Assembly (NCBI GenBank): GCA_964584315.1
Contig: CAZOZO010000001.1
Coordinates: forward strand, 84,225 to 148,224
Length of the DNA: 64,000 nt
From: an uncultured Oscillospiraceae bacterium
GTDB taxonomy: Bacteria > Bacillota > Clostridia > Christensenellales > Aristaeellaceae
Direction: 5' to 3'
Below the pieces are notes generated by a model. The model did no database searches and was not told the DNA's origin. It worked only from the letters and a program-made list of their open reading frames with translations. Position numbers and translations under genes: made by a program. Below, one piece after another: positions 5,395 through 61,351 of this stretch. How positions within the stretch are numbered: position 1 is the first letter of the stretch; every line of letters starts with the position of its first letter.

Positions 5395-5436
5395 GGCGAC
5401 CCTCCTTCACGATGGATTTTTGGGCTGGAAAGAACC

Positions 5437-44534: not shown

Positions 44535-45605
44535 CTATGCCAGCGGCATAAAGCGTTCGGCAATGGCCCTGATCTCCGCCTCGATCTGGAAGAACGCATC
44601 CACCAGCTCCGGGTCGAAGTGCTTGCCGCGCTCGCCGCCAATGATGTCAAGCGCCGTCTCGTGGCTGAAGGCGGGTTTGTATACGCGCTGGCTGACCAGC
44701 GCATCGTACACGTCGATGATGGCCATCAGCCTGCCTGCCAGCGGGATCGCCTTGCCCACGAGCCTGGCAGGGTAGCCGCTGCCGTCGAATTTCTCATGAT
44801 GCGTGCCCACGATCTCCAGCGCCGTGCAGATGAAGGAGAGCTGCGTGCCCTCGTGCCCAGCCAGCCGCAGGGCCTCTACGCCGTAGGTGGTGTGTTTTTT
44901 CATGATCTCGAACTCTTCCGGCGTCAGCTTGCCCGGCTTGAGCAGGATATGATCCGGGATGCCAACCTTGCCGATATCGTGCAGCGGCGCGGTGCTGAAA
45001 AGCTCGCTGATGTAGGCGTCGGTCAGCATGGTGCTGTAGGGTTCCATGCCGCGCAGGTGCTCGCACATGGCCTTCATCATCCACTGGGTGCGGCGGGTGT
45101 GGTTGCTGGATTCGATATCCCGCACCTCCAGCAGCCCCACCAAAGCCTGTATGGTCACGTCACGGGTCAGGTTCAGCTCGCGCGTGCGCTCCTGCACAGC
45201 GTTTTCCAGGATCACGTTGTGCTGCTCCAGCGCCTTCTGCGTTCTCTTGAGGCTGCTGTGCAGCTCGATGCGCTTGAGCAGGGAGCGCAGGTTCAGCGGT
45301 TTGCGGATGTAATCCACTGCGCCCAGCTCAAGACCCTTGATCTCGTTGTCGATCTCGTCATAATTGGTCAGGATCAGGGTGGCGATGCCGTGGTAGCGCG
45401 GGTCGTCGCGGATGGCGGCCAACACCTCAAAGCCGTTCATGCGCGGCATGTTGATATCCAGAATCATGATATCGATGTCATTTTCGCGCGCAAGCACCTC
45501 CATCGCCTCCACCCCGTCGGCGGCGGTGCGCAGGTCGTAATCCTTGAGCATGTTGCGCAGCATCATCGAATCCGTCATGGAATCGTCGACGATCAACAGT
45601 TTCAT
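44535..45605 (-). CDS. response regulator with HD-GYP c-di-GMP phosphodiesterase output domain (RpfG-like)
   Basis: 356 aa, REC (LIVDDS...ILDINMP) plus HD-GYP (HDIGK ... HHEKFDGSGYP). 3-nt spacing to the kinase gene. Confidence 0.85.
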   Translation of the reverse strand: MKLLIVDDSMTDSMMLRNMLKDYDLRTAADGVEAMEVLARENDIDIMILDINMPRMNGFEVLAAIRDDPRYHGIATLILTNYDEIDNEIKGLELGAVDYIRKPLNLRSLLKRIELHSSLKRTQKALEQHNVILENAVQERTRELNLTRDVTIQALVGLLEVRDIESSNHTRRTQWMMKAMCEHLRGMEPYSTMLTDAYISELFSTAPLHDIGKVGIPDHILLKPGKLTPEEFEIMKKHTTYGVEALRLAGHEGTQLSFICTALEIVGTHHEKFDGSGYPARLVGKAIPLAGRLMAIIDVYDALVSQRVYKPAFSHETALDIIGGERGKHFDPELVDAFFQIEAEIRAIAERFMPLA

Positions 45606-45644: not shown

Positions 45645-46967
45645 TCAATCGTTGTGCAGGATACGGTTTCCCTCCGTTTCAATCATCGCCAGAAAGGCTT
45701 CCGTGGTCAGTTCGCCGGTCATCACCCGGTGCAGCCCGGGGGCGTAGTAATCGTCCTTGACCACCTGCCACGCGGGCACGGGCACATCCACGCTGGGGTT
45801 CTGGAAGCCCTCGATGAACTTGATATAGGATGGATAGGCGCGGAATGCATCAACGGCGGACATATCGCCGCGGATGGGCGTTCGGAAGGGATAGTAGGCA
45901 TCGTGTTCCGGGCTGTATTCGCCAAGTAAAATCTGTCCCTGCGCCTTGGGGGAGATCAGGTAGCGGATTAGGTCGAGTGCCTGCGCACGCAAGGACTCGT
46001 CCAAACCCGCGGGCACGGCCAGCATCATGGGACCTACCTCCGCGCAAAGGCCGATATCCTTGAGCGAGATGACCCCCACCTCAAAGGGCTCCCCGTTTTT
46101 CTGGATGTCCGTGACACCCCAAATGCCCTGGATCTCAAAGGCGACCTGCTGGTTGCGGAAGTGATCCATCACCTCCACGCCGGTATCCGTAAGCCAGGTC
46201 GGCTGTGCGTGCGCGCCCAGAACGTTCTTGTAGAAATCGATCGCTGAACGGCTTGCCTCGCTGTTGATGGTAACAGTGGCGCCGTCTTTGCTCACCAGCG
46301 AGCCGCCAAAGCCGTAGATGCACTGGTTCACCATCCACGAGATGTCGTTGCCCTCCGCGCCGACCAGTCCGAAACCCTTGGCGCCTGTGTTGGCTTCCAC
46401 CTGTGCCATGGCGCGCACCAGCGCATCACGGCTTTTGATGGACGAGGCATCGACGCCCGCCTGTGAAAGCAGCGACTCGTTGTACAGCAGGCACATCGCG
46501 TGCCCCAGCCACGGGATGCCGTAGGTCGCGCTGCCCACGCCCCCCAGCGCCCACACCTGCGGATAAAAGGCCGCACGCTCCGCCTCGAATGCCGCGTCAA
46601 GATCCAGCAGCGCACCCTTCATGCCAAAGTACTTTACATACCGATAAGGAAGAACGCAGACGAGCGGTGCGCCGCTGTCCAGCAGCGCCTCGATGGCGTG
46701 CAGATCCTCATCGCCGCCCACCATGGTGACGGGGGCGACGCTACCCGCGTTGTAGGCATCCACGATCTTCTGGATGGCTTCGCCCCGGCCGGTGTAAGCC
46801 GCCCATGTAATGCGCAGCGATAGCCCTGCAGGGACGGCCTGCGCCGCGTCGGCACGCGGGGTGGATGCTGTTGTTTGGGCTGGCAGCTCAGGCTTTTGCG
46901 CACAGCCAAACAGGCTGAAAACCAACACGGCGGCCATCAGCAGAAGCCAGATTCTTTTCCCAATCAT
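45645..46967 (-). CDS. family-1 extracellular solute-binding lipoprotein (ABC-type SBP fold) encoded inside the signalling operon
   Basis: 440 aa, lipobox LFGC, SBP_bac_1-like sequence; no adjacent ABC permease/ATPase genes. Confidence 0.75.
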   Translation of the reverse strand: MIGKRIWLLLMAAVLVFSLFGCAQKPELPAQTTASTPRADAAQAVPAGLSLRITWAAYTGRGEAIQKIVDAYNAGSVAPVTMVGGDEDLHAIEALLDSGAPLVCVLPYRYVKYFGMKGALLDLDAAFEAERAAFYPQVWALGGVGSATYGIPWLGHAMCLLYNESLLSQAGVDASSIKSRDALVRAMAQVEANTGAKGFGLVGAEGNDISWMVNQCIYGFGGSLVSKDGATVTINSEASRSAIDFYKNVLGAHAQPTWLTDTGVEVMDHFRNQQVAFEIQGIWGVTDIQKNGEPFEVGVISLKDIGLCAEVGPMMLAVPAGLDESLRAQALDLIRYLISPKAQGQILLGEYSPEHDAYYPFRTPIRGDMSAVDAFRAYPSYIKFIEGFQNPSVDVPVPAWQVVKDDYYAPGLHRVMTGELTTEAFLAMIETEGNRILHND

Positions 46968-47297: not shown

Positions 47298-48647
47298 TCA
47301 GGCCGATACGACCCGGTTGCGCCCCATGTTTTTGGCGCTGTACATCGCGTCGTCTGCCGTATTGATAAGCTGCTGGATGTCGTTGATATCTTTATTCGGG
47401 TACGTCGCGGTACCCAAGCTGACGGTCACTTTCACTTCCTGGTCGTTCCATTTCAAAATCGAGTCGCCCACCATGATGCGGATTCGCTCCGCAATCATCT
47501 GCGAATCGTGCTGGTTGGCTCCGGGCAGCACGCACAGGAATTCCTCTCCGCCATAGCGTATCAGCACATCGCCTTCCCGAATCGCGCCGTTGATGGTTTT
47601 GGTGATGGATACGATGATCTTGTCGCCGACGATGTGCCCGTAGGTATCGTTGACCACCTTGAAGTGGTCGATATCCAGCATGATGAGCGATAAAGAAGCG
47701 CCGGAACGGATCGAACGGCTGAACTCCTCCTGGATGCGGCTGTATCCAAACCTGCGGTTATAGATGCCCGTGAGCGAATCCAGCGCAGCCAGCCGCTGCA
47801 TCTGCTGGTGTGTGATGGCGTTGTTGAAGGCCATGGACAGGATCGGGGCACAGGCGGTGAGCATGTCGAGCGCGTCGCAGGAGAACGGCGTGATGCTCGC
47901 CAGAATGATGACCCCCAGCAGCACCTGCTTGTAGATGATGGGTTCAATGATCAACGACTGCGGGCGGTAATCCACCACCAAGCCGTCCATCACGATATCA
48001 GTGGGGTACTGCACGATGTAGCGTTCATGGGTTTTCATGGTATGCAGCACAAGCGCGTTGGTCTCCAGCAGTTTTTCGTTTTTCATGGCAAGCGTGGCCA
48101 CGGCTGTAAACTCGCCGCTGTTTTCGATCAGGATCGCCCCGCCGCTGGTGTGCGTATTCTCGATCAGGCTTTGCAGCGTGCTGTTTGCGAGCACCTCCAG
48201 CTCCAGATGCGAAGTGAGCATCTCGGAAAACTGCTGCAGGCTGCTCTGCGCCTTCAATACGCCAGACAGCGTCGTGATCAGGCGGTTGAACGATTCCGCG
48301 CTTTCGCCCAGCTCATCCTCCGAATCCACCTCGATGCGGCAGGTTTCAGGCGTGCACGTGTCACAGCCTTGCTCATGCCCCATGGCGGAGAGGATGCCCT
48401 CCACGTGCTTCATTTTGGAAGACAGCTGCTTGATGCGCGTGCCTACGGTCTTGCGCGCCAGCGCGATGTTCATGACGGCCAGCAGGATGCCCGCCCCGAT
48501 GCACGCGCCAAAGAACGCGGGCTGGAATACGATGCTGCCGGGGACCTTGAACAGTGCAACAAAAAACGGAAAAAGCACGCCAACAAAAACGCCGAGCAGG
48601 ATCATGAATATGGCCAGATCGGTAAAAATTTTCTTGGTAAGCCGCAT
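47298..48647 (-). CDS. membrane-anchored GAF-GGDEF diguanylate cyclase
   Basis: 449 aa, two N-terminal TM helices, HAMP-like linker, GAF-like region, GGDEF domain with intact GGEEF active site and RxxD-type I-site context. Confidence 0.85.
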   Translation of the reverse strand: MRLTKKIFTDLAIFMILLGVFVGVLFPFFVALFKVPGSIVFQPAFFGACIGAGILLAVMNIALARKTVGTRIKQLSSKMKHVEGILSAMGHEQGCDTCTPETCRIEVDSEDELGESAESFNRLITTLSGVLKAQSSLQQFSEMLTSHLELEVLANSTLQSLIENTHTSGGAILIENSGEFTAVATLAMKNEKLLETNALVLHTMKTHERYIVQYPTDIVMDGLVVDYRPQSLIIEPIIYKQVLLGVIILASITPFSCDALDMLTACAPILSMAFNNAITHQQMQRLAALDSLTGIYNRRFGYSRIQEEFSRSIRSGASLSLIMLDIDHFKVVNDTYGHIVGDKIIVSITKTINGAIREGDVLIRYGGEEFLCVLPGANQHDSQMIAERIRIMVGDSILKWNDQEVKVTVSLGTATYPNKDINDIQQLINTADDAMYSAKNMGRNRVVSA

Positions 48648-48809
48648 ATCTGTACCCCTTATTTTCTTTCGGCGCCGGCAATGGGTGGCTTTCCGTACCT
48701 GTCGCCGGATGCATAATAGCTATCATTTTAGACATATTCACCACTCTGTCAATAGACAAGACATGAGGTTTGTGGCTCAAAGTGCAGGCCGGCGCGCGAC
48801 CGATGCCTA

Positions 48810-48838
48810 TTTACAGAAGTCAACTCCCTTTATATAAT
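48810..48838 (+). promoter_or_regulatory. sigma70 promoter of the exopolysaccharide operon (TTTACA-17-TATAAT), divergent from the DGC operon
   Basis: TTTACA 48810-48815, TATAAT 48833-48838; ~60 nt to the GTG start with AGGAGG RBS. Confidence 0.6.
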
Positions 48839-48902
48839 GAAACGGAGGGGGATATGGCCCCGCGTGTGATCGTTGCCCAAATGTTTTTACAGGAGGCACC
48901 CT

Positions 48903-51900
48903 GTGCGCAAAGTCATAGGCGGTTTTCTTGCCATCATACTGCTGCTGGCGGGCATGCTTTGGGTCACCAAGGCATATTTCTTCTCCATCGGCTATTCGCA
49001 GCCGCTGGTCGTCAGCAGCCAGGGCGTGTCCTACACCGCCAAGGTGGAGGGCAAGGATTTTTATGTGCTGGACGCGGGCGGGCAGTGGAAAAAAACATTC
49101 CTCGCCGGTGTGGATATCGGCCTTGGCGCACCTGGATCGTTCCCGGGCGAGTTTGCCATCGGGTATGAGACCTATTTCGACTGGTTCACGCAGATCGGCG
49201 ATCTGGGCTCGAACGTCATCCGCGTGTACACGCCGCAGTCGCCTGCTTTCTACCACGCACTGTACGAGTATAACCGCGTTGCGGCCACTCCGCTGTATTT
49301 GATGCAGGGCGTGTATATGGATGAGAGCGACGTGGCGCAGTACGGCGACGTGTTCGACCCCCGCTCCATCACCATTGCGGATATGCGGCAGGATATCGTG
49401 GACTGCGTGAACATGCTGCACGGCAACGCAGTGATCGGCGCCAAGCCGGGAAAGGCTTCGGGCGTATATCAGTATGACGTCTCCAAGTATGTGATCGGCT
49501 GGATACTGGGCATCGAGTGCGAGGCGTATCTGGTGGATGGCACCAACAAGGCGCACCCCGAGATGACCAGCTTTCAGGGGCGCTTCGTCTATACCGAGAA
49601 TGCCTCGCCCTTTGAGGTCTTCATCGCGCAGATGAAGGAGCTGGCCATTGCCTACGAGACCGATCAATACCGGATGCAGCGGCCCGTGGCGTTCAGCAAC
49701 TGGGTTACTACCGACCCCCTGAAGCACGTAAACGAGCCCTACGAGACGGAGGACAGCGCCACCATTGATGTGGAGCATATCAAGTCGATGCCTGCCTTTG
49801 CGCCGGGCTTCTTTGCCTCCTACCACGTGTACCCCTACTATCCCGATTTTCTCAACTTCCCCAGCGGCGACCCGGCGGTGGACGCGGATCCGTATTACGC
49901 CTATGTGCGCTCGCTGGTGGATTTCCATGCTGTGCCCGTGCTCATCTCCGAGTTTGGCCTGCCCACCTCCCGTGGGGTAACGCACATCAACCATCTGAGC
50001 GGCCTCAACCAGGGCGGCAACAGCGAGCAGCAGCAGGCGCAGGGGCTTACGAAGATGCTGGACGACATCCACCGTGCCGGTTGCATCGGCGGCATCGTGT
50101 TTGCCTGGCATGACGAGTGGTTCAAAACCTCGTGGAACACCATGGACTTTGATGACAGCTCCGCTCGCCCCAAATGGCTCAATGTACAGTCCAGCGAGGA
50201 GAACTTTGGCCTTGTGCGCTTCTCCGCCTTCCCGTCCATCCAGATCGACGGCGACGATGCGGACTGGGCTGGTGCCAAGGCTGTGGGCGATAGCGACGCC
50301 TTGAAAGCGAACTGGGATGAGGCCTACCTCTACCTGCGGCTTGCCACGGACGATTTTGAAAACCAGACCTACTATGTGCCCATCGACACCATCGCAGACG
50401 AGGGCAACGAAGGCTATGAGGGCGCATCTTTTGCCCGCGCGGCCGATTTTGTGCTGGTGCTGGATGGCAGGCAGGACACGCGCCTGCTGGTCGACCCGTA
50501 CTATAACCCAAACTATAGACTCTACGGACGGGATACCTTCCCCAAAGAGGCGCTTGCGGACTTCACGGTCAAGGGCAGCGGTAAGTTCATCATGGTGCAG
50601 CAGGTCATCAGCAACCGGCTCCTCATGCCCAAGACCGGCCAAATCGTGCCCGTTCAGCTGTGGGATACCGGCAAAATGCGCTACGGCGTCTCCAACCCTG
50701 AGAGCCCCGCCTTTGATTCCATGGCCGATTTTTGCGCGGGGGATGGGTTCGTGGAGATACGCATCCCGTGGCTGTTGCTGAATTTCGCGGATCCGTCCTC
50801 CGGCAAGATTCTGACCGACCTGCACAAGGAGGGGCCGTTCAGCTTTGAGCGCATCCAGAGCATTTACCTGGGCGTGGGCGAGGCTGACGAATCAGCGGCC
50901 GTCTCCATGGCGCCCTACACGCTGCCCGCATGGGGTGCATTCCCCTACCAGCAGCGGCTGAAGCTGGCTTACTACGCGCTGGAGAAGGTTTTCCCGAAAT
51001 ACGCCACCTACCCGATCAGCGCGGGCGACCCGCTGGCGGAGGCGCTGCGCCTGCGCGACACGCGCCTTTTGTACGTGCGCATCGACCGTCAGATCCGCAA
51101 CACAGATCTGATCACGTTCTTCCTGGCCGTGTCGCTGCTGATGGCGCTGTACCTCTATATCCTGCTGCTGGCTATCAACCTGAACCTGAACCGCATCTTC
51201 AGGCGTCAGGAACGCGAGCGTGTCTACCTGCTGTCGTTGCTTGCATTGCCGGAAAAGAAGCTGCGCCGCAAGCTGCACATGCATTACCTGTGCACGGCCA
51301 GAGGTGCGGAGCTGCTGTGCCGCATCCTGACGGACGAATGCCCGTGGGGAAGCGATACGGCGCTTATCGAGGTGCTGCGCACAGGGCGTTACTTCGCCTG
51401 GATGAAACGTAGCCTTGCCTCGCGGGACATGATGCTGCGTATCCTGATCATCCGCCTGACGGGCCTTTTGCGCATCCGCAGTTTTGAAACGCAGATCATC
51501 CCTCTGATGCGGGCGCAGCGCGATAACCTGAACCTGCAATACGCGGGTTTTCTGGCGCTGTCGATGATGGGCAACCGCGACAGCATCGTCAAGCTCTGCG
51601 GCGACCCGGCCTTTACCAAGTCGCTCTCCTACCGCAGCCTGAAGGAGATCTTCAGCGTGTACACGGGAGACAAGCGATTTTTGTACGAGAAGCTGCTGCT
51701 CTCGCCGGATGTGTACATCCGCCGCATCGTGATCAAAAACATCGGCGAGGAAGGCTTCCGCGAATATGCCCAGGCGCTGATCCCCATGCTGGAGAGCCGG
51801 GACGACAACATGCTGTGCGACGTGATCCGCGCGCTGGGGCAGCTGCGCTGCACCGCCGCCGGAGAGCGGATCGCGATGTACATGCGCAGCGAGAACTGGA

Positions 51901-52151
51901 CGCTGCGCAACGCGGTGGTGGTGGCCCTGGCCGCCATCGATGCGGAGGCCTACCGCCCCCTGCTGATGGAGGGTCTCAAAGACAAAGAGTGGTGGGTGCG
52001 CTACAACAGCGCGCGGGAGCTGTGTGCCAACGTACCGCTGGAATCGCTGGCAGCAGCCATCCCCACGCTGAACGACCGGTTCGCGGCCGAGATACTGCGC
52101 TTCGCCATCGATGAGGCGCGCATGATGGGCAAGGGGGTGGCTAGGGTATGA
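48903..52151 (+). CDS. two-pass membrane protein: extracellular clan GH-A-like (TIM-barrel) glycoside-hydrolase fold + beta-sandwich region, second TM, cytoplasmic HEAT/PBS-lyase-type repeat domain
   Basis: Start GTG 48903 (RBS AGGAGG, 6-nt spacer); the track's TTG 48873 lacks an RBS. N-terminal TM (VIGGFLAIILLLAGMLWV); candidate acid/base NEP (HVNEPYE) and nucleophile ExG (LISEFGLP) ~80 aa apart; second TM (LITFFLAVSLLMALYLYILLLAI); C-terminal ~300 aa of HEAT-like repeats (VIRALGQL...AVVVALAAID...WWVRYNSAREL). 4-nt overlap with the GT2 gene. Confidence 0.7.
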   Translation: MRKVIGGFLAIILLLAGMLWVTKAYFFSIGYSQPLVVSSQGVSYTAKVEGKDFYVLDAGGQWKKTFLAGVDIGLGAPGSFPGEFAIGYETYFDWFTQIGDLGSNVIRVYTPQSPAFYHALYEYNRVAATPLYLMQGVYMDESDVAQYGDVFDPRSITIADMRQDIVDCVNMLHGNAVIGAKPGKASGVYQYDVSKYVIGWILGIECEAYLVDGTNKAHPEMTSFQGRFVYTENASPFEVFIAQMKELAIAYETDQYRMQRPVAFSNWVTTDPLKHVNEPYETEDSATIDVEHIKSMPAFAPGFFASYHVYPYYPDFLNFPSGDPAVDADPYYAYVRSLVDFHAVPVLISEFGLPTSRGVTHINHLSGLNQGGNSEQQQAQGLTKMLDDIHRAGCIGGIVFAWHDEWFKTSWNTMDFDDSSARPKWLNVQSSEENFGLVRFSAFPSIQIDGDDADWAGAKAVGDSDALKANWDEAYLYLRLATDDFENQTYYVPIDTIADEGNEGYEGASFARAADFVLVLDGRQDTRLLVDPYYNPNYRLYGRDTFPKEALADFTVKGSGKFIMVQQVISNRLLMPKTGQIVPVQLWDTGKMRYGVSNPESPAFDSMADFCAGDGFVEIRIPWLLLNFADPSSGKILTDLHKEGPFSFERIQSIYLGVGEADESAAVSMAPYTLPAWGAFPYQQRLKLAYYALEKVFPKYATYPISAGDPLAEALRLRDTRLLYVRIDRQIRNTDLITFFLAVSLLMALYLYILLLAINLNLNRIFRRQERERVYLLSLLALPEKKLRRKLHMHYLCTARGAELLCRILTDECPWGSDTALIEVLRTGRYFAWMKRSLASRDMMLRILIIRLTGLLRIRSFETQIIPLMRAQRDNLNLQYAGFLALSMMGNRDSIVKLCGDPAFTKSLSYRSLKEIFSVYTGDKRFLYEKLLLSPDVYIRRIVIKNIGEEGFREYAQALIPMLESRDDNMLCDVIRALGQLRCTAAGERIAMYMRSENWTLRNAVVVALAAIDAEAYRPLLMEGLKDKEWWVRYNSARELCANVPLESLAAAIPTLNDRFAAEILRFAIDEARMMGKGVARV

Positions 52152-53560
52152 GGAACGTGATCTACGCGGTGTTGATGGTCATCAACAGCCTTTCGCTGGC
52201 GTACATGATCGGCATCACGATCACGTACTTCCTGCAGCTGCTCTACTCCGGCAAGGCCCTCAACGAATATGTCAAGTACCTGCGCTTTTCGGATTACCGC
52301 CGCTACATCGATTCGGCCAACATGATCCCCGTTTCGCTGATCGTGCCCGCCTACAACGAGGAAGCGACGGTGACCGAAACGGTCAAAAACCTGCTCAAGC
52401 TCAACTACCCGGAGTATGAGATCATCGTGGTGAACGACGGCTCCAAGGACGGCACGCTGCCGCTGTTGATCGAGAAATTCAGCATGGTGCCCATCGAGCA
52501 GCCGTTCAAAAAATCGGTGGAAGCCAAACCCATCCGCGCGGTGTACCGCACGCCGCTGCATGCCAACCTGATGGTCGTGGACAAGGAAAACGGCGGCAAG
52601 GCGGACGCGCTGAACGCGGGCATCAACTTTTCCCGCTACCCGGTGGTGGTGTCGATGGATGCGGACTCGGTACTGGAGAAAGAAGCGCTGGTGCGCATCG
52701 TGTCGCCCTTTTTGCAGGACAACACGGTGGTTGCGGTGGGGGGCGTGGTGCGCATCGCCAACGGCTGCGTGATCGAAGATGGCGAGATCAAGGAGATTCG
52801 CCTGCCGCGCACAGCGCTGGGCAAACTGCAAACGGTGGAGTACTTGCGCTCGTTTTTCACGGGGCGCATCGGGGCCGCGTCCATGGGCATGCTGCTGATC
52901 ATCTCCGGCGCATTCGGCGCCTTCCGCAAGGATGCGGTCATCTCGGTGGGCGGCTACACCACGCACTGCATCGGCGAGGATATGGAGCTGGTGGTCAAGC
53001 TGCACCGCGGCCTGCGCAATGCGGGCAAGCCGTACAAGATCGACTTTCTGCCGGACCCCATCTGCTGGACGCAGCCGCCCGAAAACCTGCGCGACCTGTA
53101 CAAGCAGCGCAAGCGCTGGCAGATCGGCCTAATCAACGTGCTGATGCGCCACAAAGACATGGCTTTCAACGCCAAGTACGGCAAAGCCGGGCTTTTGATG
53201 CTGCCCTATTATTGGATCTTCGAGTTTATCGGCCCCATCTTTGAAACGATGGGTTATTTCGTGATACCGCTGTCGTGGTGGCTGGGTATCATCAGCTGGA
53301 AATTCACATTGCTGTTCTTCCTGCTGGTGGTGATGGTAGGGCTGATCCTGTCGCTGGGCGCGATATTGCAAGAGAGTTATGCCATGCGCAAGTTCCCCAA
53401 AATGAGCCAGATACTGACGCTGGCCGCCTACGCGCTGGTAGACAACTTCGGCTTTCGGCAGTTCAACACCGTGATCCGTTTCATCGGCTGCATCAAATAC
53501 CGCAGCGGTAAGAGTACGTGGGGCTCCATGAAGCGTGAAAAGTTCGTATCCAAAAAATGA
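52148..53560 (+). CDS. processive family-2 glycosyltransferase (PgaC/IcaA/NodC/chitin-synthase-like beta-glycan synthase)
   Basis: 470 aa, N- and C-terminal TM bundles, GT-A core with VNDGSKDGT, DADSVL, and the processivity motif QRKRWQIG (QxxRW). No PilZ domain. Confidence 0.82.
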   Translation: MRNVIYAVLMVINSLSLAYMIGITITYFLQLLYSGKALNEYVKYLRFSDYRRYIDSANMIPVSLIVPAYNEEATVTETVKNLLKLNYPEYEIIVVNDGSKDGTLPLLIEKFSMVPIEQPFKKSVEAKPIRAVYRTPLHANLMVVDKENGGKADALNAGINFSRYPVVVSMDADSVLEKEALVRIVSPFLQDNTVVAVGGVVRIANGCVIEDGEIKEIRLPRTALGKLQTVEYLRSFFTGRIGAASMGMLLIISGAFGAFRKDAVISVGGYTTHCIGEDMELVVKLHRGLRNAGKPYKIDFLPDPICWTQPPENLRDLYKQRKRWQIGLINVLMRHKDMAFNAKYGKAGLLMLPYYWIFEFIGPIFETMGYFVIPLSWWLGIISWKFTLLFFLLVVMVGLILSLGAILQESYAMRKFPKMSQILTLAAYALVDNFGFRQFNTVIRFIGCIKYRSGKSTWGSMKREKFVSKK

Positions 53561-53713
53561 CCCCGCGACGCGCAGCGGGCAGTTGCGCATCCGTTGCGGA
53601 CAGAGGCGGACGAGAGCATGGCCGCTCGCCCCATCATTCATTGGCCATAGCGGGCCGCGCAGTGCAGGCGTTCGACCGCACGCCACCCGCGCATGAGAAT
53701 TTGGGAGGTGTAT

Positions 53714-54847
53714 GTGCGCTTGAAGCCATATCATCGGCGGTTTCGGGGCAAGGCAATGCTAATGGCGGCCATTTTGCTGACCGTCTCCGGTTGCGTGGCG
53801 CCGGTTATGGGCTTCACACTGCCAACGGCACGCGCGGAGGGCAGGTTGCTCACCGGCGTGTATGTGTTTGACGGCAGCAGGGCCAAGTACCGCGACGGCG
53901 ATGCGGACAGCATCGACCAGATGTTCTATTCCTTCGCCCTCATCCGCCGCGGGCGGGTGAGCGTAGCCCACTGGAAAAATTTCAAAAAGTTTCAGGCGTA
54001 CATCCAAAAGCATCCGCACATCACGCCCATCTTATCGGTGGGCGGGTGGGGTGCGGACGGGTTTTCGCAGGCGGCCGCCACGGCGGAGGGTCGTGAGGCG
54101 TTTGCCGCGGATGTGCTGCAGGTGATGCAGCAGCATGGTTTTTTGGGTGTGGATATCGACTGGGAATATCCGGGTTCCTCTGTCGCGGGCATCCACAGCA
54201 GCCCCGATGACCGGGAGAACTACACCCTGCTGCTCAAGACGCTGCGCGAAGGGCTGGACGCCTTGACCGCCGCTGACGGAGTGCCGCGCAGGCTGTGCGT
54301 GGCATTGAGCGGTTCGCCCGATATGGCGGCAAGCTTGGATTGCGTAGCGATCGGCACGGTTGTGGATCAGGTCAACCTGATGACTTATGACTTGCAGCAG
54401 CCAGACACTGCCTCGCACCACAGCGCGCTGTTTGCATCGCACCCGGACGCGCTCTCGGCGGCGGCCTGTGTGCAGGCCTACATACGAGCGGGTATCCCCG
54501 CGGGCAAGCTCATGCTGGGTGTGGCGTTCTACGGCCACCGCTGGGCAACGAAGGCCGAAGCGCCGCTCTACCGCCCGGCGACCCAAAAGGACACGCTGCC
54601 TTACGCCGCCATCGCCAAGCTGATCCGCAAAACGCCAGATGCGGTGCGCTATGACGAAGTGGCGCAGGCACCGTACTTTTTTGACGGAAAAACCTTCATC
54701 AGCTATGATGATCAGCGGTCGATCGCGCAAAAAGGGCTTTATGCCGGTGAGCAGCACCTGATGGGGCTGTTCGCGTGGGAATATGGCTCGCTGGCGGACG
54801 GGGAACTCGTGGCGGCGATGGGGGATGCGGGGGAGCAGGAGCCGTAG
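53714..54847 (+). CDS. GH18-family glycoside hydrolase lipoprotein (chitinase / endo-beta-N-acetylglucosaminidase-like)
   Basis: Start GTG 53714 (RBS GGGAGG): lipobox LLTVSGC. GH18 catalytic DxxDxDxE motif (GVDIDWEYP), SVGGW, MTYDL. The track's ATG 53693 is 7 codons upstream and overlaps the RBS. Confidence 0.82.
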   Translation: MRLKPYHRRFRGKAMLMAAILLTVSGCVAPVMGFTLPTARAEGRLLTGVYVFDGSRAKYRDGDADSIDQMFYSFALIRRGRVSVAHWKNFKKFQAYIQKHPHITPILSVGGWGADGFSQAAATAEGREAFAADVLQVMQQHGFLGVDIDWEYPGSSVAGIHSSPDDRENYTLLLKTLREGLDALTAADGVPRRLCVALSGSPDMAASLDCVAIGTVVDQVNLMTYDLQQPDTASHHSALFASHPDALSAAACVQAYIRAGIPAGKLMLGVAFYGHRWATKAEAPLYRPATQKDTLPYAAIAKLIRKTPDAVRYDEVAQAPYFFDGKTFISYDDQRSIAQKGLYAGEQHLMGLFAWEYGSLADGELVAAMGDAGEQEP

Positions 54848-55048: not shown

Positions 55049-57070
55049 TCACGCATTCTTCGGGGGTTCATCCGGGGTCGTGGGCGGCTGGGCTGCTTCC
55101 TGCCCCTGCATGGCCTGCATGATGGATTCTTTGATGCCCTTGACGCGGGCATCCTCTGCCTTGGGCTCCTGATCGAAGGTCACGCCCAGCTTTTCGCTCA
55201 CAAGCAGGTTCAGCAGCATTTCAAATGCATTGACGGAGCTGTTCTTGCCGTCCCCGCCGCCCATACTGAGCACCGTTTTGGGCACGACGTCGACTTTCGA
55301 AGCTGCGATGGCGGAGGTGAACTTGGTCATCACGTCCTGCACGACCTGATACTGCGGGCCGCCGTATGCCTTGACCTGTTCCTCAATGGCAATGGCGCGG
55401 CCGATGCCCACGCGGGCTTCCTTCTCGGCCTCGGCCTCGGCAATGGTTTTGATTTTGGCCGCTTCCTGCAGCGAGCGCTGATATTCGGCCTTACCCACGT
55501 TGCTCTGTACCTGAATGTTGATATCGGATTCCGTCAGCACTGTCTGCTGCAACGCTTTGGACTCGGCTTCACGCAGCTCTTTTTCCTTGCCGGCTGCTTT
55601 TTCCTGCTGGGAATAAGTCTCGATGCGCTCGATGGCGATCTGCCGCTCGCGCAGCTGGGTCAGGATGATCTCGATCTTGTTGTCGTTCTCGGAGGCCGCG
55701 GGCGTGCCGATGAGCACTTCCTCCAGCTCCAGATTGTAGTGTTCGAACTTTGCCTTCATCTCGCTGGAGGAGACACGCTGGATCTCATTTCGATCCTGAA
55801 TGAGCTGGATCAGCGTCTTGGTCTGGCCGATGTTCTTGAAGTACGCGGACACCATGGGGTCAAGGGTTTGGTCTACCAGCATCTTGACATCGCCAAAGCG
55901 CTGGATGACCAGCGGGGCCTTTTTGTAGTCGATGTGCATGACCACCGAGAGCGGCAGGGATGGCTCAAAGGCATCCTTGGTGATCAGGCTGACTTCCGTC
56001 AGGTTTTCGTCAAATTTGTGGTAGCCGGTCTGGTTGCTGATCCACTTGAGGATGATGTTTGTGGTGGGCACGCGGATGATCTTGCCCGCATAGGTGTTGA
56101 AGGCGTACTTGCCGGGCATGAGCGGCTCTCCCCACACGCCGCGGAACCCCTTTTCCACCAGCTCGCCGTGCTTATAATCCGCGCCGGTGGAATCGATCCC
56201 CTTAGGGCCGATGTAGGACACGACCACGCCCACATACCCGACCTCGATCAGCGTTTTTTCGATCAGTTCCACGGTCGCGAAAAAGCGGTTGATGAAGTAG
56301 GTGCCCTCGACCAGCACCTGATACTGCCTGCCGCGGAAACCGCCTGCCAGCAGAAATTTCTCGGGATCCTGAAAGTTGTTATGGTAGATGCGTGCATCGG
56401 CTGGGTCGTCGCCCACGGCGGGGGCGATGATATCGTCGCGGGTGAGAGAAAGGCCGTCGTGAACCGTCACGATGCCCACCTTGTCATCCGTGCCCTTGAT
56501 CACCACCGGGGTAAAGCCGTTCCGCTCTTTCAGGAGAGCCGCCATGCTGGTGATGGTGGATTCTTCGGCGCTGGTGCCCATCGGCAGGTAATAGATCCTC
56601 TCTTGGGTGATGATGATGAACTGCGCAAGGTTGAACGCATACGTGCCCTCACGGATGATGCCGCGCTGCGGACCGCGCTGCCCATCGTTGAGCAGAAAGC
56701 CGCGCGCATCCTGAAAGTTATTGCTCTCCGGAATCACCTTGCCCAGCGTCTGGATCGGCTCCAGTGGCTTGCCATCCCGGGCGAACACATAGGCGATCTG
56801 CCCCTGCGGCACCGTGACCAGCGGGCAGATGTGCACCTTGTACATCAAAGGCGTCAGAAAATGGACGCCGCCGCGGATGACCTGCGGCTGATATCCGGCT
56901 TCCTTTTTCAGCGCGATAATCTGCATGTTCAGGGAGCCCTTCAGGGACCACCATTTTTCAATGATCGCAATCTTGTTGTTGGGGATCACGCGCAACCCCA
57001 GCAGCCACAACAGCAGGGCACAGTCCACCACGATCGCAAGCGGCATCAGGATCGATTGCAGGAAGACCAT
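55049..57070 (-). CDS. flotillin (FloT/YuaG/YqiK-like SPFH-domain protein)
   Basis: 673 aa from ATG 57070 (RBS GAGGTG): N-terminal TM, SPFH/band-7 domain (QVIRGGVHFLTPL...), long coiled coil with EA-repeats (IAEAEAEKEARVG...), C-terminal FloT-like tail. The track's 205-codon 5' extension has no coding signature. Confidence 0.75.
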   Translation of the reverse strand: MVFLQSILMPLAIVVDCALLLWLLGLRVIPNNKIAIIEKWWSLKGSLNMQIIALKKEAGYQPQVIRGGVHFLTPLMYKVHICPLVTVPQGQIAYVFARDGKPLEPIQTLGKVIPESNNFQDARGFLLNDGQRGPQRGIIREGTYAFNLAQFIIITQERIYYLPMGTSAEESTITSMAALLKERNGFTPVVIKGTDDKVGIVTVHDGLSLTRDDIIAPAVGDDPADARIYHNNFQDPEKFLLAGGFRGRQYQVLVEGTYFINRFFATVELIEKTLIEVGYVGVVVSYIGPKGIDSTGADYKHGELVEKGFRGVWGEPLMPGKYAFNTYAGKIIRVPTTNIILKWISNQTGYHKFDENLTEVSLITKDAFEPSLPLSVVMHIDYKKAPLVIQRFGDVKMLVDQTLDPMVSAYFKNIGQTKTLIQLIQDRNEIQRVSSSEMKAKFEHYNLELEEVLIGTPAASENDNKIEIILTQLRERQIAIERIETYSQQEKAAGKEKELREAESKALQQTVLTESDINIQVQSNVGKAEYQRSLQEAAKIKTIAEAEAEKEARVGIGRAIAIEEQVKAYGGPQYQVVQDVMTKFTSAIAASKVDVVPKTVLSMGGGDGKNSSVNAFEMLLNLLVSEKLGVTFDQEPKAEDARVKGIKESIMQAMQGQEAAQPPTTPDEPPKNA

Positions 57071-57456
57071 CGAATCCACCTCATTTCGGATTTGCAGGAA
57101 CGGTTGGTTATGAATATCCGATCTGTATCGCGCATTTTCGTTTTTGTTTGCGATGCGGACTGTTCTTGTATCATACCACTTTGAGGGGCCAAAGTATACG
57201 GAGCGCGTCAAACGGCGCAGGTTTATTTTTCCTGTCGGATGTATGGAACACTGCCGTCCGTCAAAAACGGTAAAGCGATCACTCGGAACGAAACGAGCAG
57301 GACATTCAATTCCGTAGCACCTCGACGCAAACAGACCCTGACATGGAAGATGGCATTGCACGGACGCTACCCGGGCTTTGAAGCACAGAACGCAATGCAG
57401 CGCCAAGGAAGCCAACGCTACGGAAGCGTCATTAAGGAACCCTCGACCGGCAGCCC

Positions 57457-58257
57457 CTAGCTGCTCGCGCTCTGGTAGTGCTTCAGACCCAACTTGAAAA
57501 GCCTGCTCGTGAACCACAGCCACAAAAACGGCCCCACGATGCCCCACACCGCCTGCAGCGGATCCATCCGCTTGAGGATGAACAGCGCGGGGAAATTGGT
57601 GATCAGAAAGATAGGCAGCGCGAACGAGCCCACCAGCTGTATGGCGCGGCTGTAAATGCCCATGGGCATGTTGTTGAAATCCCACGAGCTGTCCACCAAC
57701 CCCGCGAGCGCGTGAGTACGGATCAGCCGAAAGGCCAGTATCTGCGGCAGCAGGAACATTGCATACGCCATCATCGTGCCCAGCGCCAGATAGCCGAGGT
57801 ACCCCAGCACATCCAGCACGCTCACCGTCATGGCCATGCCGGAAAGCCCCACCGCGATGGGGGCGATGCCCAGCAGCACATCCACGGTGAACAGGGCCAT
57901 ATCGCTGCGCTTGAGGGTCAGGATGAACTGGAGCGATACGGGCTTGACCAGTAGCAGGTCGAGCTCGCCTGTCTGCACCTGCCGCCCGATGTCGAACAGG
58001 TTCATCATATACAGACCCGCGTAGGGGCCGGTCGCCACCATGTACGTGCCGAAGAACACCAGCACCTCATTAGGCGTAAGACCGTTGATGGGCACGCCCG
58101 TCTGGAAGATCACAATCATGTAGAGGATCTTAGACAGGAAACACCCCAGTTCCATCGCGATACCGGTGTAAAAGTTGGTGCGGTACTCCATCTGGCTCAT
58201 CAGGCTGTTGCGGATGAGCATGCCCCACAAAACCAGATACTTTTTGACACTCGCCAT
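57457..58257 (-). CDS. ABC-2 family transporter permease
   Basis: 267 aa from ATG 58257 (MASVKKYLVLWGML...), 6 predicted TM helices. Confidence 0.7.
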   Translation of the reverse strand: MASVKKYLVLWGMLIRNSLMSQMEYRTNFYTGIAMELGCFLSKILYMIVIFQTGVPINGLTPNEVLVFFGTYMVATGPYAGLYMMNLFDIGRQVQTGELDLLLVKPVSLQFILTLKRSDMALFTVDVLLGIAPIAVGLSGMAMTVSVLDVLGYLGYLALGTMMAYAMFLLPQILAFRLIRTHALAGLVDSSWDFNNMPMGIYSRAIQLVGSFALPIFLITNFPALFILKRMDPLQAVWGIVGPFLWLWFTSRLFKLGLKHYQSASS

Positions 58258-58261
58258 TCGC

Positions 58262-59071
58262 TCAGCCCCCCGCCGCCAGAAATTTGCGCGAACCCAGATT
58301 CCACAACCAACGGCTGAACCCAATCAACAGGCCGATCCAGCACAGTTGCGCCGCGTAGCCCAGGAACACCGCAGGGCCGGATACCGCGCCCAGCAGCACG
58401 TCCACGGGGAACCCCACGGCATAGGAGAAGGGCAGGTATTTGAGCACTTGGCTGACCGTGGCCCCAAAAATCTCCAGCGGGAAAATGCCGCCGCTGAGTA
58501 CGACGATCACCATGCGCACGGCCTCGAACAGGAAGCCGATCTCGGACAGCCAGAACGCCCACATGCCCACGCAAAAGAAAATCAGGAAATTGAGCACGAT
58601 CGCGCCCAGCACCGCGGGCAGAAACAGCAGCACACCGCCAACGTTCACGGGCGATGCCTGAAAGGCAAACCCGACGCCTGCCAGTGCAAGCGCGAGCAGG
58701 CTCAGGCCGCCAACAAGCGCCCCCAGCTTTTGTCCCAGAAAATTGCTCAGGCGGTAGGGCAGGTAATGGATGGGGCGCACGATGTATTTACTCAGCCCGC
58801 CGTTTTTGATATCCTCGTTGATGTCGTATTCAAAGCCGGTGCGCAGCAGCCGCCACAGGATGGCAGCAGTAACGGAATAAGCGAGCATCTGCGCGTAGTT
58901 GCGGCCGTACAGCTCCGCCTTGCCCGCACCGCCGTACAGCGCCTGCCACATGAACACCTGAATGAAGATGGGGAATGCGGCGCTTGCGACCCCCAGCCAG
59001 AAATCTGCGCGGTAGGCAATGGCCTCCTTGAGGCCCAAACCCAGCGAGTGCAGGTATTTGCGGATGGTCAT
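58262..59071 (-). CDS. ABC-2 family transporter permease
   Basis: 270 aa from ATG 59071 (RBS GGAGAGGAA; MTIRKYLHSLGLGLKEAIAYRADFWLGV...), 6 TM helices. The track's upstream extension overlaps the ATPase gene. Confidence 0.7.
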   Translation of the reverse strand: MTIRKYLHSLGLGLKEAIAYRADFWLGVASAAFPIFIQVFMWQALYGGAGKAELYGRNYAQMLAYSVTAAILWRLLRTGFEYDINEDIKNGGLSKYIVRPIHYLPYRLSNFLGQKLGALVGGLSLLALALAGVGFAFQASPVNVGGVLLFLPAVLGAIVLNFLIFFCVGMWAFWLSEIGFLFEAVRMVIVVLSGGIFPLEIFGATVSQVLKYLPFSYAVGFPVDVLLGAVSGPAVFLGYAAQLCWIGLLIGFSRWLWNLGSRKFLAAGG

Positions 59072-60054
59072 TGTCCGTTCCTCTCCGTATACAGCCGCGC
59101 GATGCCCTCCTCCACCGGGATGTCCCCGATGTTGAAATCCGTCACGGGCAGGGTTTCCAGCATCCTTTGCGATACCTGGCGCACCTGGTCGCGTGGCACC
59201 TCGATCACGGCCTGCAAGCCCTCGCGCCCGCATGGCGTGCCAAAGCGGCTCAGGTCCATCTGCGCGGCTTCCTCAGTCTCAAAGGTGATCTGGATGCGCT
59301 TGTGGTCGCCAAACAGGCCGTTGATCTTCTTCAGCTCGCCGTCGTAGGCGATGGTTCCGTCCGCGATCACGATGGTGCGGCGGCACAGGTCTTCGATATC
59401 GCTGATGGAATGGCTGGTGAGCAGCACGGTGGTCTGCCGCTCGCGGTTATACTCGCGTAAAAACGCGCGGATGCGCTTTTGGGAGATGATATCCAGCCCG
59501 ATGGTCGGCTCGTCCAGAAACATCACTTCCGGCTGGTGCAATAGCGAGGCGATCAGCTCCATCTTCATGCGCTCACCCAGCGACAACCGCCGTACCTGCA
59601 CACCCAGCTGCTCCCTTACGTCCAAAAGCTCCACCAGCTTGCCCAGCGTTCTGCGGTACTGGGCTTCGTCCAGCTCGTAAATGTGGCGGTTGAGCGAGAA
59701 GGATTCCACAGCGGGCAGATCCCACCACAGCTGGCTCTTTTGCCCCATGACGATGGCAAAGCGCATCTTGAAGCCCTTCTTGCGCTCCCACGGCACATAG
59801 CCCATGACCGTGGCCTCGCCGGAGGTGGGGTAGAGGATGCCGGAGAGCATCTTGAGCGTGGTGGTCTTGCCGGCACCGTTGGGGCCCAGGAAGCCCACCA
59901 TCTCCCCCTTTTCCAGCGATAGGTCAATGCCGCGCACGGCCTCCTTGCAAAGCTTTTCACGGTGGAAAAGGCTCCGCAGCGAGGCTTTCATGCCTTCTTC
60001 CTTTTTTGTGTACTCAAACGTTTTCTTAAGCGCCCGCACTTCGATCAATGCCAT
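59068..60054 (-). CDS. ABC transporter ATP-binding protein
   Basis: 328 aa, GPNGAGKTT, LSLGERMKMEL, MFLDEPTIGLD, H-loop TSHSI. ATGA overlap with the downstream permease gene. Confidence 0.88.
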   Translation of the reverse strand: MALIEVRALKKTFEYTKKEEGMKASLRSLFHREKLCKEAVRGIDLSLEKGEMVGFLGPNGAGKTTTLKMLSGILYPTSGEATVMGYVPWERKKGFKMRFAIVMGQKSQLWWDLPAVESFSLNRHIYELDEAQYRRTLGKLVELLDVREQLGVQVRRLSLGERMKMELIASLLHQPEVMFLDEPTIGLDIISQKRIRAFLREYNRERQTTVLLTSHSISDIEDLCRRTIVIADGTIAYDGELKKINGLFGDHKRIQITFETEEAAQMDLSRFGTPCGREGLQAVIEVPRDQVRQVSQRMLETLPVTDFNIGDIPVEEGIARLYTERNGQ

Positions 60055-61349: not shown

Positions 61350-61351
61350 CG

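Follow-up and report, generated by a model that had tools for sequence, protein, structure and literature searches.

The window, a stretch of 64,000 nucleotides, carries three genes on its forward strand which encode an X-HEAT fusion protein (gene 1), a membrane GT2 synthase (gene 2) and a GH18 lipoprotein (gene 3). These lie divergently from four signalling genes on the reverse strand, with the features positioned as follows:

41503–44532, reverse strand: hybrid histidine kinase with an SBP_bac_3 sensor and Hpt (Pfam)
44535–45605, reverse strand: REC-HD-GYP phosphodiesterase-type response regulator (Pfam)
45645–46967, reverse strand: SBP_bac_1 protein (Pfam)
47298–48647, reverse strand: membrane GAF-GGDEF diguanylate cyclase (PF00990, E 3.7e-46, plus GAF)
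48810–48838, forward strand: predicted sigma-70-type promoter of the cassette, TTTACA-17-TATAAT (11/12 in a consensus scan; consensus match only)
48903–52151, forward strand: gene 1, X-HEAT fusion protein, 1082 aa (open reading frame and start codon, homologues, AF2 model)
48993–51017, forward strand: X domain, residues 31–705, with a (beta/alpha)8 barrel at about 60–420 and a beta-sandwich at about 438–686
49515–49517, forward strand: candidate catalytic Glu E205 of X
49950–49952, forward strand: candidate catalytic Glu E350 of X
51120–51176, forward strand: second transmembrane helix of gene 1, residues 740–758, between extracellular X and cytoplasmic HEAT (hydropathy, model)
51240–52127, forward strand: cytoplasmic HEAT (PBS-type) repeat domain of gene 1 (PF13646, E 2.5e-13)
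52148–53560, forward strand: gene 2, membrane GT2 synthase, 470 aa (Pfam GT2 families, motifs)
53714–54847, forward strand: gene 3, GH18 lipoprotein, clade-specific accessory gene (PF00704; start and ribosome-binding site as read)

The longest open reading frame of gene 1 opens at a TTG at 48873 and would give 1092 aa. The start is likely to be the GTG at 48903, which has AGGAGG just 5' of the codon, giving a protein of 1082 aa, the length of the closest homologues in Ca. Limiplasma/Christensenellales (at most 85% identity). The protein is laid out as a first transmembrane helix, an extracellular clan GH-A TIM barrel with a beta-sandwich (together termed X), a second transmembrane helix and cytoplasmic HEAT repeats. 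A hydropathy scan placed hydrophobic segments at residues 4–22 and 740–758, the latter followed directly by the basic stretch RIFRRQERER, and in the AF2 model (pLDDT 86.3) a long helix at 736–779 covers the second segment. A profile of the HEAT domain matched alphaRep/HEAT structures in the PDB with E-values down to 8e-41. In most genomes HEAT is a single-TM gene of its own, encoding about 350–390 aa, and elsewhere it is fused to GT2.

Gene 2 encodes the motifs D171-A-D173, G276-E-D278, Q320-RKR-W324 (QRKRW at 53105–53119) and a C-terminal WGSMKR, with hydrophobic segments at the N-terminus and C-terminal to QxxRW. It matched PF13641 (E 1.9e-26), and its best NCBIfam hit was PgaC_IcaA (TIGR03937; 174.2 bits, E 4e-51, with an equivalog cut-off of 422.3), ahead of an XrtG-associated glycosyltransferase (129 bits) and the cellulose synthase CelA (43 bits). 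Identity to PgaC of Escherichia coli was 31% over 277 aa, and matches in the PDB included BcsA and HAS. The Q[RK]xRW motif was present in 63/65 cassette GT2s. For the model of a homologue in which HEAT and GT2 are fused, the best Foldseek matches were hyaluronan synthase (TM 0.56–0.63 on the target), BcsA and chitin synthase. The QxxRW motif, the C-terminal TM helices and this modelled fold support the assignment of GT2 to the membrane-embedded processive type.

Gene 3 has no possible start before 53693, and the most likely one is the GTG at 53714 with GGGAGG 5' of the codon. The product matched PF00704 (E 3e-61; 208 bits with a cut-off of 29.6) and, in the PDB, chitinase ChiW (1.5e-102) and a GH18 N-acetylglucosaminidase (5e-58). 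It contains a lipobox (VSGC, Cys27) and the catalytic D147-I-D149-W-E151, with the first Asp of the DxxDxDxE motif replaced by Leu (FLGVDIDWE). A preliminary description of this DNA had proposed a 1082-aa membrane protein with a GH-A-like barrel and HEAT repeats, a GT2 with the QxxRW processivity motif and a GH18 lipoprotein with DIDWE, and all three identifications are borne out by the domain matches, hydropathy and modelled folds given above. It had also described the three genes as translationally coupled. Genes 1 and 2 do overlap (by ATGA), but gene 3 begins 133–153 nt after the GT2 stop and is not coupled in this way.

The predicted fold of X agrees with clan GH-A, being a (beta/alpha)8 barrel with a putative acid/base Glu at the end of strand 4 and a putative nucleophile Glu at the end of strand 7. 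The candidate pair E205 and E350 is kept in 87% of X domains. The Asn that precedes the acid/base Glu in GH-A enzymes (the NE motif) is missing, with position 204 occupied by Ile in 65, Leu in 14, Val in 12 and Pro in 12 of 113 sequences, so the catalysis of X may be atypical. Sequence searches placed X in no existing GH family: it had no Pfam match at E<=10 and no NCBIfam match, and a 33-sequence profile found no GH in the PDB at E<=10. A fold search with the model gave GH157 as the closest fold, with the GH72 and GH17 beta-1,3-glucan transglycosylases also among the best matches. GH157 is a family of endo-beta-1,3-glucanases (PMC10229575, PMC10637969), to which X has no detectable sequence relationship and from which it differs in the Ile before the putative acid/base, its membrane anchor and its synthase-linked gene. 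Likewise, X has no sequence similarity to the GH17 and GH72 domains of the NdvB-type GH17-GT2 cyclic beta-glucan synthases and the fungal Gas/Gel enzymes; compared with NdvB, it is coupled to HEAT instead of being fused straight to GT2, and lies outside the membrane. Several operons contain two or three X paralogues, some of which lack the catalytic Glu pair.

The spread of X was gauged with two X peptide motifs against the GTDB species-representative genomes, where at least 596 stretches matched. The three modules share operons across Bacillota. Within 80 loci, a GT2 gene lay at most 8 kb from X in 66/80 and both HEAT and GT2 in 53/80, with X, HEAT and GT2 in one tight operon in 46–47/80. In 32/80 the X gene had no recognised partner clustered tightly with it, some of these loci being cut by contig ends and some belonging to the XrtG type, where the GT2 is of another subtype. 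The layouts found were three separate genes, X-HEAT fusions (the window, L002 and L012) and HEAT-GT2 fusions (L007, L010 and some 70 proteins with lengths near 965 aa), the last predicted as one body (pTM 0.75). A Deinococcus plasmid also carries the cassette in the same order with overlapping genes. No functional study of it was found in the literature, and X, HEAT and GT2 make up a polysaccharide-synthase cassette that is widespread in Gram-positive bacteria but unstudied. The trio suggested at first, with GH18 as the third member, is not what the neighbourhood comparison recovered: the conserved unit is X, HEAT and GT2, and the GH18 gene is a local add-on. GH18 was seen only in the window, L004/L005 (83% identity) and L092 (70%), being absent from L093 (62%) and found in 0/80 GTDB loci. 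At 70–85% identity it lies directly 3' of GT2, with a gap of 48 nt in L092. A sister clade has GH16 in its place, in Christensenellaceae loci with the same divergent histidine kinase, HD-GYP and SBP operon, the GH16 gene being the first gene.

The cassette promoter is divergent from a promoter-like site of the GGDEF gene (TTGACA-16-TAAAAT, 48752–48725), both found by the consensus scan, in agreement with the preliminary description of a sigma70 promoter divergent from a GGDEF gene. The cyclase has an intact GGEEF motif and RxxD I-site. What had been called a c-di-GMP operon does include this gene, but the unit consists of four genes (GAF-GGDEF, SBP_bac_1, REC-HD-GYP and hybrid histidine kinase). 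The last three are also divergent beside the cassette in Ca. Limiplasma (L004–L006), with L004 (83% identity) lacking the GAF-GGDEF gene at this site, and are likewise divergent beside a split cassette in distant Christensenellaceae (L001, L008 and L015). Between these two clades the X domains are only about 44% identical, and both have the histidine kinase, REC-HD-GYP and SBP operon next to the cassette. GGDEF or HD-GYP genes were found inside 22/80 cassette operons, at a density of 5.3 genes per 100 kb inside the operons versus 2.3 outside, and the gene directly upstream of HEAT encoded REC, REC-GGDEF-REC or GGDEF-HD-GYP in 16/45. About 40% of loci had no nearby GGDEF or HD-GYP gene. With these counts and the recurrence of the operon in a distant clade, the link to c-di-GMP is stronger than was initially proposed. 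Searches of Pfam and NCBIfam detected no c-di-GMP receptor domain of the known types (such as PilZ, I-site GGDEF or MshEN) in genes 1–3, nor was a motif or domain for c-di-GMP binding recognised in HEAT or GT2. In some relatives, weak and possibly degenerate GGDEF-REC proteins were found directly upstream of HEAT-GT2.

Taken together, the locus rather probably codes for a machine for synthase-dependent exopolysaccharide production whose type has yet to be studied. GT2 would polymerize a sugar nucleotide at the inner membrane face and pass the chain across the membrane through a channel of its own. It is suspected that the X, HEAT and GT2 proteins form a physical complex in which HEAT, tethered by one TM helix, would regulate the synthase or serve as its docking subunit on the cytoplasmic side, receiving input from receiver-domain and c-di-GMP-turnover proteins. 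X, at the outer membrane face, may act on the nascent chain as a retaining GH-A-type glycosidase or transglycosylase which catches the chain as it emerges, to trim, release or transfer it. In the genome of the window, X and HEAT are combined in one two-pass protein. c-di-GMP probably sets the output and may do so by activating synthesis; it would be made by the divergent GAF-GGDEF protein and broken down by the REC-HD-GYP protein under control of the kinase. More tentatively, X, HEAT and GT2 could represent a distinct, widespread class of Gram-positive exopolysaccharide systems, with HEAT as a new type of regulatory subunit, X as the founder of a new family and a polymer that varies by lineage. 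If so, a HEAT solenoid would directly couple receiver-domain and c-di-GMP signalling proteins to a glycan synthase, X would be a new glycoside hydrolase/transglycosylase family processing the chain at the channel exit, and the swap of GH18 and GH16 accessory genes would mark lineage-specific polymers.

That GT2 is a non-processive transferase, e.g., of the polyprenyl-phosphate glycosyltransferase type, in a coincidental neighbourhood is extremely improbable: many non-processive GT2 families gave weak N-terminal matches, but DAD, GED, QRKRW and the C-terminal TM helices are all present, the BcsA alignment spans residues 57–426, the homologue fold is nearest to hyaluronan, cellulose and chitin synthases, and the gene context and fusions recur across hundreds of genomes. 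For the product itself the hints conflict: the window has GH18 but the sister clade GH16, X has a fold like that of GH157, and GT2 resembles PgaC. The GlcNAc- or chitin-like product of the preliminary description was overstated, as it was derived from the accessory GH18 gene alone; the presence of GH18 speaks for a product with beta-1,4-GlcNAc in this lineage without showing it, and GlcNAc is only one option. A beta-glucan (e.g., beta-1,3 or mixed-linkage) or other GlcNAc-free polymer, with GH18 being an unrelated neighbour for scavenging of chitin, chitooligosaccharides or glycans, is somewhat unlikely. It would agree with the GH157, GH72 and GH17 fold matches of X, the GH16 gene heading the Christensenellaceae loci, the lack of GH18 in 80/80 other loci and the gap of about 150 nt before the GH18 gene. 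However, GT2 scores far higher against PgaC/IcaA than CelA, GH18 stays directly after GT2 in the close relatives, and fold neighbours of 18% identity cannot fix the specificity of X.

The resemblance of GT2 to PgaC/IcaA would also fit PNAG (poly-beta-1,6-GlcNAc) synthesis of the Pga/Ica type with atypical accessory proteins, but this is quite improbable. GH18 enzymes cut beta-1,4 linkages and not the beta-1,6 linkage made by PgaC (CAZy). The 174 bits are far under the equivalog cut-off, and the window has no PgaD/IcaD-like small subunit, CE4 deacetylase, GH153 or GH20. In Listeria the PgaC-like GT2 PssC is also most like IcaA, and the authors of that study deemed the product unpredictable from this (PMC4125290). 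It is also unlikely, if less so, that the locus serves to build or remodel a glycan attached to the cell wall (secondary wall polymer, spore or sheath polysaccharide) instead of a secreted biofilm matrix, with X as a transglycosylase grafting the chain to the wall, much like the remodelling of beta-glucan by fungal Gas/Gel (GH72) enzymes. This reading is favoured by the anchoring of X at the outer membrane face in organisms without an outer membrane, by the X paralogues with and without the Glu pair and by a Clostridium perfringens cassette of matching sizes and annotations that adjoins cotH (PMC2879425). Against it, no wall-anchoring or LCP-type gene lies within the window and an association with c-di-GMP is typical of matrix polysaccharides, while hydrolase and transglycosylase activities of X are not separable in silico.

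The preliminary description had found the locus to fit no pga/ica, bcs, pel or pss set, and comparison with the known systems agrees. PgaCD of E. coli and IcaAD of staphylococci, the nearest family to GT2 by sequence, likewise have a small synthase embedded in the membrane, with TM helices at both termini and a need for a membrane partner. The E. coli PNAG synthase is activated by c-di-GMP. Neither PgaD/IcaD nor a CE4 de-N-acetylase (PgaB/IcaB) was found among the window neighbours or in the loci of relatives; the cassette lacks a porin, pairs the synthase with a HEAT-repeat protein and a GH-A-like ectodomain, and has WGx[IM][KR]R as the C-terminal motif of GT2, where PgaC has RWVSPDRG. With BcsA-BcsB and BcsZ it shares the logic of a processive GT2, a single-TM extracytoplasmic partner by the channel, a glycosidase dedicated to the system and control by c-di-GMP, here probable, and BcsA was among both the sequence matches of GT2 and the fold matches of the HEAT-GT2 homologue. 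However, neither PilZ nor BcsB (PF03170) matched genes 1–3 in Pfam or NCBIfam, and the ectodomain is a predicted TIM barrel which keeps catalytic Glu residues, so that X may serve as both partner and glycosidase.

Among Gram-positive exopolysaccharide systems, Listeria pssA–E/pssZ and Bacillus subtilis ydaJKLMN likewise pair a GT2 resembling IcaA with an accessory hydrolase (GH8, PssZ/YdaJ), and both depend on c-di-GMP (PMC4125290, PMC5422440, PMC13274460). Their receptor is the degenerate-GGDEF I-site protein PssE/YdaK, and PssD has been called a BcsB orthologue (PMC4125290), whereas the cassette has HEAT and X and no BcsB domain. A primer-based scan for the Pss/Yda accessory subunits gave random matches only, and no B. 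subtilis cluster was among ten family representatives checked by name from the best 150. No C. perfringens protein was among the best 120 matches of a Clostridium X query. By size and annotation, on which the match rests, the split cassette resembles CP4_0466-0468 of the necrotic-enteritis-associated locus NELoc-2 of C. perfringens, which encode, in that order, a hypothetical protein of 685 aa, a HEAT-repeat protein of 377 aa and a GT2 of 466 aa annotated as "chitin synthase", and to which that paper assigns no function (PMC2879425).

ORF analysis of the interval revealed three genes, all on one strand, behind a promoter close to consensus:

48810–48838: promoter of the cassette, TTTACA-17-TATAAT, near-consensus match
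48903–52151 (+): gene 1, fusion of an extracellular domain (X) with HEAT repeats
52148–53560 (+): gene 2, GT2 synthase
53714–54847 (+): gene 3, GH18 protein

The ORF of gene 1 opens at a TTG (48873), and reading of the sequence pointed to an alternative GTG at 48903, which is preceded by an AGGAGG box and yields a protein of 1082 aa, just as long as its closest homologues. Hydropathy placed transmembrane segments at residues 4–22 and 740–758, with basic residues preceding the first and following the second, which puts the middle part of approximately 700 residues outside the cell and the C-terminal part inside. This C-terminal part consists of HEAT repeats of the PBS type (PF13646, E 2.5e-13; alphaRep matches in the PDB). 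An antisense ORF of 672 aa within gene 1 (48807–50825, −) was rejected as a gene, being probably a by-product of the approximately 60% G+C content.

The X domain had no sequence match in Pfam, NCBIfam or the PDB, even with a profile of 33 sequences or at E ≤ 10, and a profile search of PDB sequences for a glycoside hydrolase relative returned only HEAT and alphaRep matches. The AlphaFold2 model of gene 1 (mean pLDDT 86.3) showed a regular (beta/alpha)8 barrel at approximately residues 60–420, followed by a beta-rich domain at approximately 438–686. In this model E205 follows strand 4 and E350 lies in strand 7 (motif ISEFG), the positions at which clan GH-A enzymes have their acid/base and nucleophile. 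GH-A enzymes normally carry an Asn directly before the acid/base Glu; in the X family the residue before the putative acid/base E205 is Ile, Leu or Val. The pair is retained in 98 of 113 X-family domains and missing from approximately 13% of them overall, so that some X paralogues may act as binders without catalytic activity.

Gene 2 overlaps gene 1 through an ATGA and encodes a 470-aa GT2 with the motifs DAD, GED and QRKRW and with hydrophobic helices flanking the catalytic domain on both sides; as read from the sequence, this motif set and topology match those of processive membrane synthases. It is nearest to PgaC/IcaA (31% identity), scoring 174 bits against a family cut-off of 422, with an XrtG-associated glycosyltransferase as the second-best NCBIfam match. 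The AlphaFold2 model of a homologue with HEAT fused to GT2 (pLDDT 80, pTM 0.75) was closest in fold to hyaluronan synthase, BcsA and chitin synthase. The C-terminal tail of gene 2 had no match in the PDB when queried alone, and a likeness to the WGTR-type motif that hyaluronan and chitin synthases carry is not claimed here.

Homologues of gene 1 were of two kinds: full-length proteins that include HEAT, from Ca. Limiplasma, Christensenellales and other groups, and a much larger set of approximately 700–730 aa covering X alone, for which ‘family 2 glycosyl transferase’ and ‘hypothetical’ are the usual names. In the split form (loci L001, L003, L008 and L009) the X gene is followed by a single-TM HEAT protein of approximately 350–390 aa and then by a GT2 of approximately 470 aa. 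In other genomes the N-terminus of GT2 carries a fused HEAT and X lies downstream (L007 and L010), and this HEAT-GT2 form also occurs in some 70 proteins of approximately 965 aa. The gene order and the fusions in both directions link X, HEAT and GT2 as three modules of one cassette. A scan with two X peptide motifs against a collection holding one genome per GTDB species matched at least 600 stretches, with 596 confirmed as relatives among the matches listed, and neighbourhoods were counted in the best 80 loci of these at least 596 relatives. A GT2 lay within 8 kb of X in 66 of the 80 and both HEAT and GT2 in 53, with the tight operon around X including GT2 in 47 and HEAT in 46. An exhaustive HMMER search returned 1603 clusters at 50% identity (E ≤ 1e-3). 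The cassette spans hundreds of species, its hosts including Clostridium, Paenibacillus, Lysinibacillus, Geobacillus, Desulfosporosinus, Acetobacterium, Ruminococcaceae, Lachnospiraceae, Christensenellales (Christensenellaceae among them) and Acholeplasma-like bacteria.

A number of individual loci should also be noted. On plasmid pRadio2 of Deinococcus radiophilus (L215, 6521–11555), overlapping genes in the order X|HEAT|GT2 encode an X protein of 808 aa, annotated ‘tetratricopeptide repeat protein’, a HEAT-repeat protein of 390 aa and a glycosyltransferase of 479 aa, which places the cassette also outside Bacillota and on a plasmid. Seven Ruminococcaceae/Oscillospiraceae operons (L026, L032, L037, L059, L068, L074 and L087) have the layout HD-GYP (approximately 740 aa)|X (approximately 1015 aa)|HEAT|GT2|X|X, with three X paralogues each. 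In some Lachnospiraceae X lies within an XrtG/PTPS-type locus with a different GT2 subtype; one example (L031, 3800–11974) includes a PF10131 membrane protein and a PF01242 PTPS, and its GT2 lacks the C-terminal WGx[IM][KR]R motif present in 55 of 65 cassette GT2s. In a Christensenellales relative of 62% identity (L093), a second polysaccharide-type cluster (26–8676, −) diverges from the X-HEAT gene and encodes a CE4 protein (1117 aa), a chitin-synthase-like GT2 (685 aa) and proteins of 724 and 336 aa without Pfam matches; the 724-aa protein was considered as an X paralogue and rejected, as it was not X-like on comparison.

Gene 3 encodes a GH18 protein that contains DIDWE and carries a lipoprotein signal (VSGC), and its best solved relatives in the PDB are chitinase ChiW and a GH18 N-acetylglucosaminidase. 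Its earliest possible start is 53693 and its probable start a GTG at 53714, i.e., 133–153 nt past gene 2, so the translational coupling proposed for it in the preliminary description does not hold. A GH18 directly follows GT2 in the window, in two Ca. Limiplasma loci (L004 and L005, 83% identity) and in one further relative (L092, 70%); it is absent from L093 and from all 80 GTDB loci examined. The GH18 therefore stands outside the conserved unit, and the recurring trio is X, HEAT and GT2 instead of the GH-A/HEAT, GT2 and GH18 set that had been suggested. In the Christensenellaceae split-cassette loci, which have the same divergent histidine kinase/REC-HD-GYP/solute-binding protein operon, a GH16 gene comes first instead of GH18. 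Separately, a 1124-aa protein of Mucilaginibacter xinganensis (P0190) carries a weak GH18-like domain (107–396) with NLDFD replacing DxDxE, a CE4 deacetylase (487–587) and a GT2 (763–1046) in one chain; here a GH18-type domain and a PgaC-like synthase have been fused independently.

Divergent from the cassette promoter, a second predicted promoter would serve a membrane GAF-GGDEF cyclase, its GGEEF and RxxD motifs both intact; past the cyclase lie genes for a solute-binding protein, a response regulator of REC-HD-GYP type and a hybrid histidine kinase. The three genes with the domains first assigned to them, and the divergent promoter near a GGDEF cyclase, were thus borne out by Pfam, motifs, the AlphaFold2 barrel and the promoter scan. 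The kinase/REC-HD-GYP/solute-binding protein operon also adjoins the cassette both in closely related genomes and in Christensenellaceae, a distant clade; the GAF-GGDEF gene is not at the corresponding position in the 83%-identity relative. Among the best 80 loci, a GGDEF or HD-GYP gene was located within 8 kb of X in 33 and within the tight operon in 22, with a density of 5.3 per 100 kb inside operons against 2.3 outside. Recurrent layouts, checked with Pfam, were X|GGDEF(-REC)|HEAT|GT2, X|REC|HEAT|GT2 and ODP-GGDEF-REC|HEAT-GT2|X, together with REC-GGDEF-REC|HEAT|GT2|X|REC in Bacilli and HD-GYP|X|HEAT|GT2|X|X in Ruminococcaceae. Of 45 operons, 16 had a REC, REC-GGDEF-REC or GGDEF-HD-GYP gene immediately upstream of HEAT and 28 had X there. 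Rfam detected no c-di-GMP riboswitch or other RNA element upstream of the cassette, the leader of which is just approximately 60 nt long, and gave zero matches at gathering thresholds over the whole window (1–64000). Pfam and NCBIfam searches found no known c-di-GMP receptor domain in genes 1–3.

The locus probably encodes synthase-dependent exopolysaccharide machinery. It differs from Pga/Ica in that its GT2 scores below the family cut-off and PgaD/IcaD and CE4 are missing, and from Bcs in having neither PilZ nor BcsB. By system logic, its nearest Gram-positive analogues are Listeria Pss and B. subtilis Yda. Published work treats PssD as orthologous to BcsB (PMC4125290), whereas X carries no BcsB domain. 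For comparison with YdaN/YdaL, a 16-mer from the ydaN primers (PMC13274460, Table S2) was scanned over metagenome contigs, and the second primer was missing from all 120 loci matched, as were homologues of X, GT2 and HEAT. Ten family representatives of approximately 700 aa, taken from the top 150 and looked up by name, were uncharacterized proteins only, and a literature search on HEAT and GT2 with c-di-GMP or biofilm in clostridia found no functional study. The sole trace of the cassette found in the literature is C. perfringens NELoc-2, whose gene list runs, with no functional data, from a hypothetical protein (685 aa) through a HEAT protein (377 aa) to a ‘chitin synthase’ GT2 (466 aa) (PMC2879425); the resemblance to the split cassette is by sizes and annotation only. 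A query with the C. celatum X recovered many Clostridium species, with no C. perfringens among the best 120 matches listed. The proposal of a candidate undescribed, c-di-GMP-associated exopolysaccharide system is upheld; overall, the preliminary description was largely right in observation and partly right in interpretation.

In the proposed mechanism GT2 would polymerize and export a glycan, and HEAT, tethered at the inner face, would be the subunit on which REC and c-di-GMP-turnover proteins dock or through which they regulate it, a role that may be comparable to that of PilZ in BcsA, PgaD, PelD and PssE. X, tethered at the outer face, would take the emerging chain and trim, release or transfer it, possibly uniting the roles that other systems divide between BcsB-like partners and dedicated glycosidases. 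In the window, the divergent cyclase would supply c-di-GMP and the kinase-controlled HD-GYP protein would remove it.

As to the product, the GH18 of the window lineage favours a beta-1,4-GlcNAc-containing chain, in line with the chitin-like polymer first proposed. The main alternative is a beta-glucan, as suggested by the GH16 of the sister lineage and by the X fold, which resembles GH157, or another GlcNAc-free polymer. Similarity of the PgaC/IcaA type does not predict the sugar, as seen with Listeria PssC (PMC4125290). A GlcNAc-containing product in the window lineage is put forward tentatively, at somewhat under even chances, and the chitin-like reading is unproven.

The interest of the cassette lies in the size of the family, in X, with no sequence match in Pfam, NCBIfam or solved structures, and in the signalling partners that recur beside the HEAT gene. 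To our knowledge, little has been learned about the polysaccharides that form the matrix of anaerobic Gram-positive bacteria from the gut and the environment, and the c-di-GMP targets identified so far in Bacillota are few. If the model is true, it would add a new synthase-dependent system, a new glycoside hydrolase family and a new kind of regulatory subunit, and would offer a testable path by which a sensor kinase and c-di-GMP lead to matrix production in such bacteria. The annotation-matched cassette of C. perfringens sits in a locus associated with necrotic enteritis.

Three further features were observed in the window. Convergent with the GH18 gene is a gene (55049–57685, −) for an 878-aa protein with an SPFH/Band 7 domain (residues 480–687) and no other Pfam match. 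An ABC-2-type transporter set of two PF06182 permease genes and one ATPase gene lies at 57457–60054 (−). A few kb from the cassette, a 768-aa protein (61322–63628, +) with four PG_binding_1 repeats and a NAGPA phosphodiester-glycosidase domain is possibly a wall-glycan-processing enzyme.
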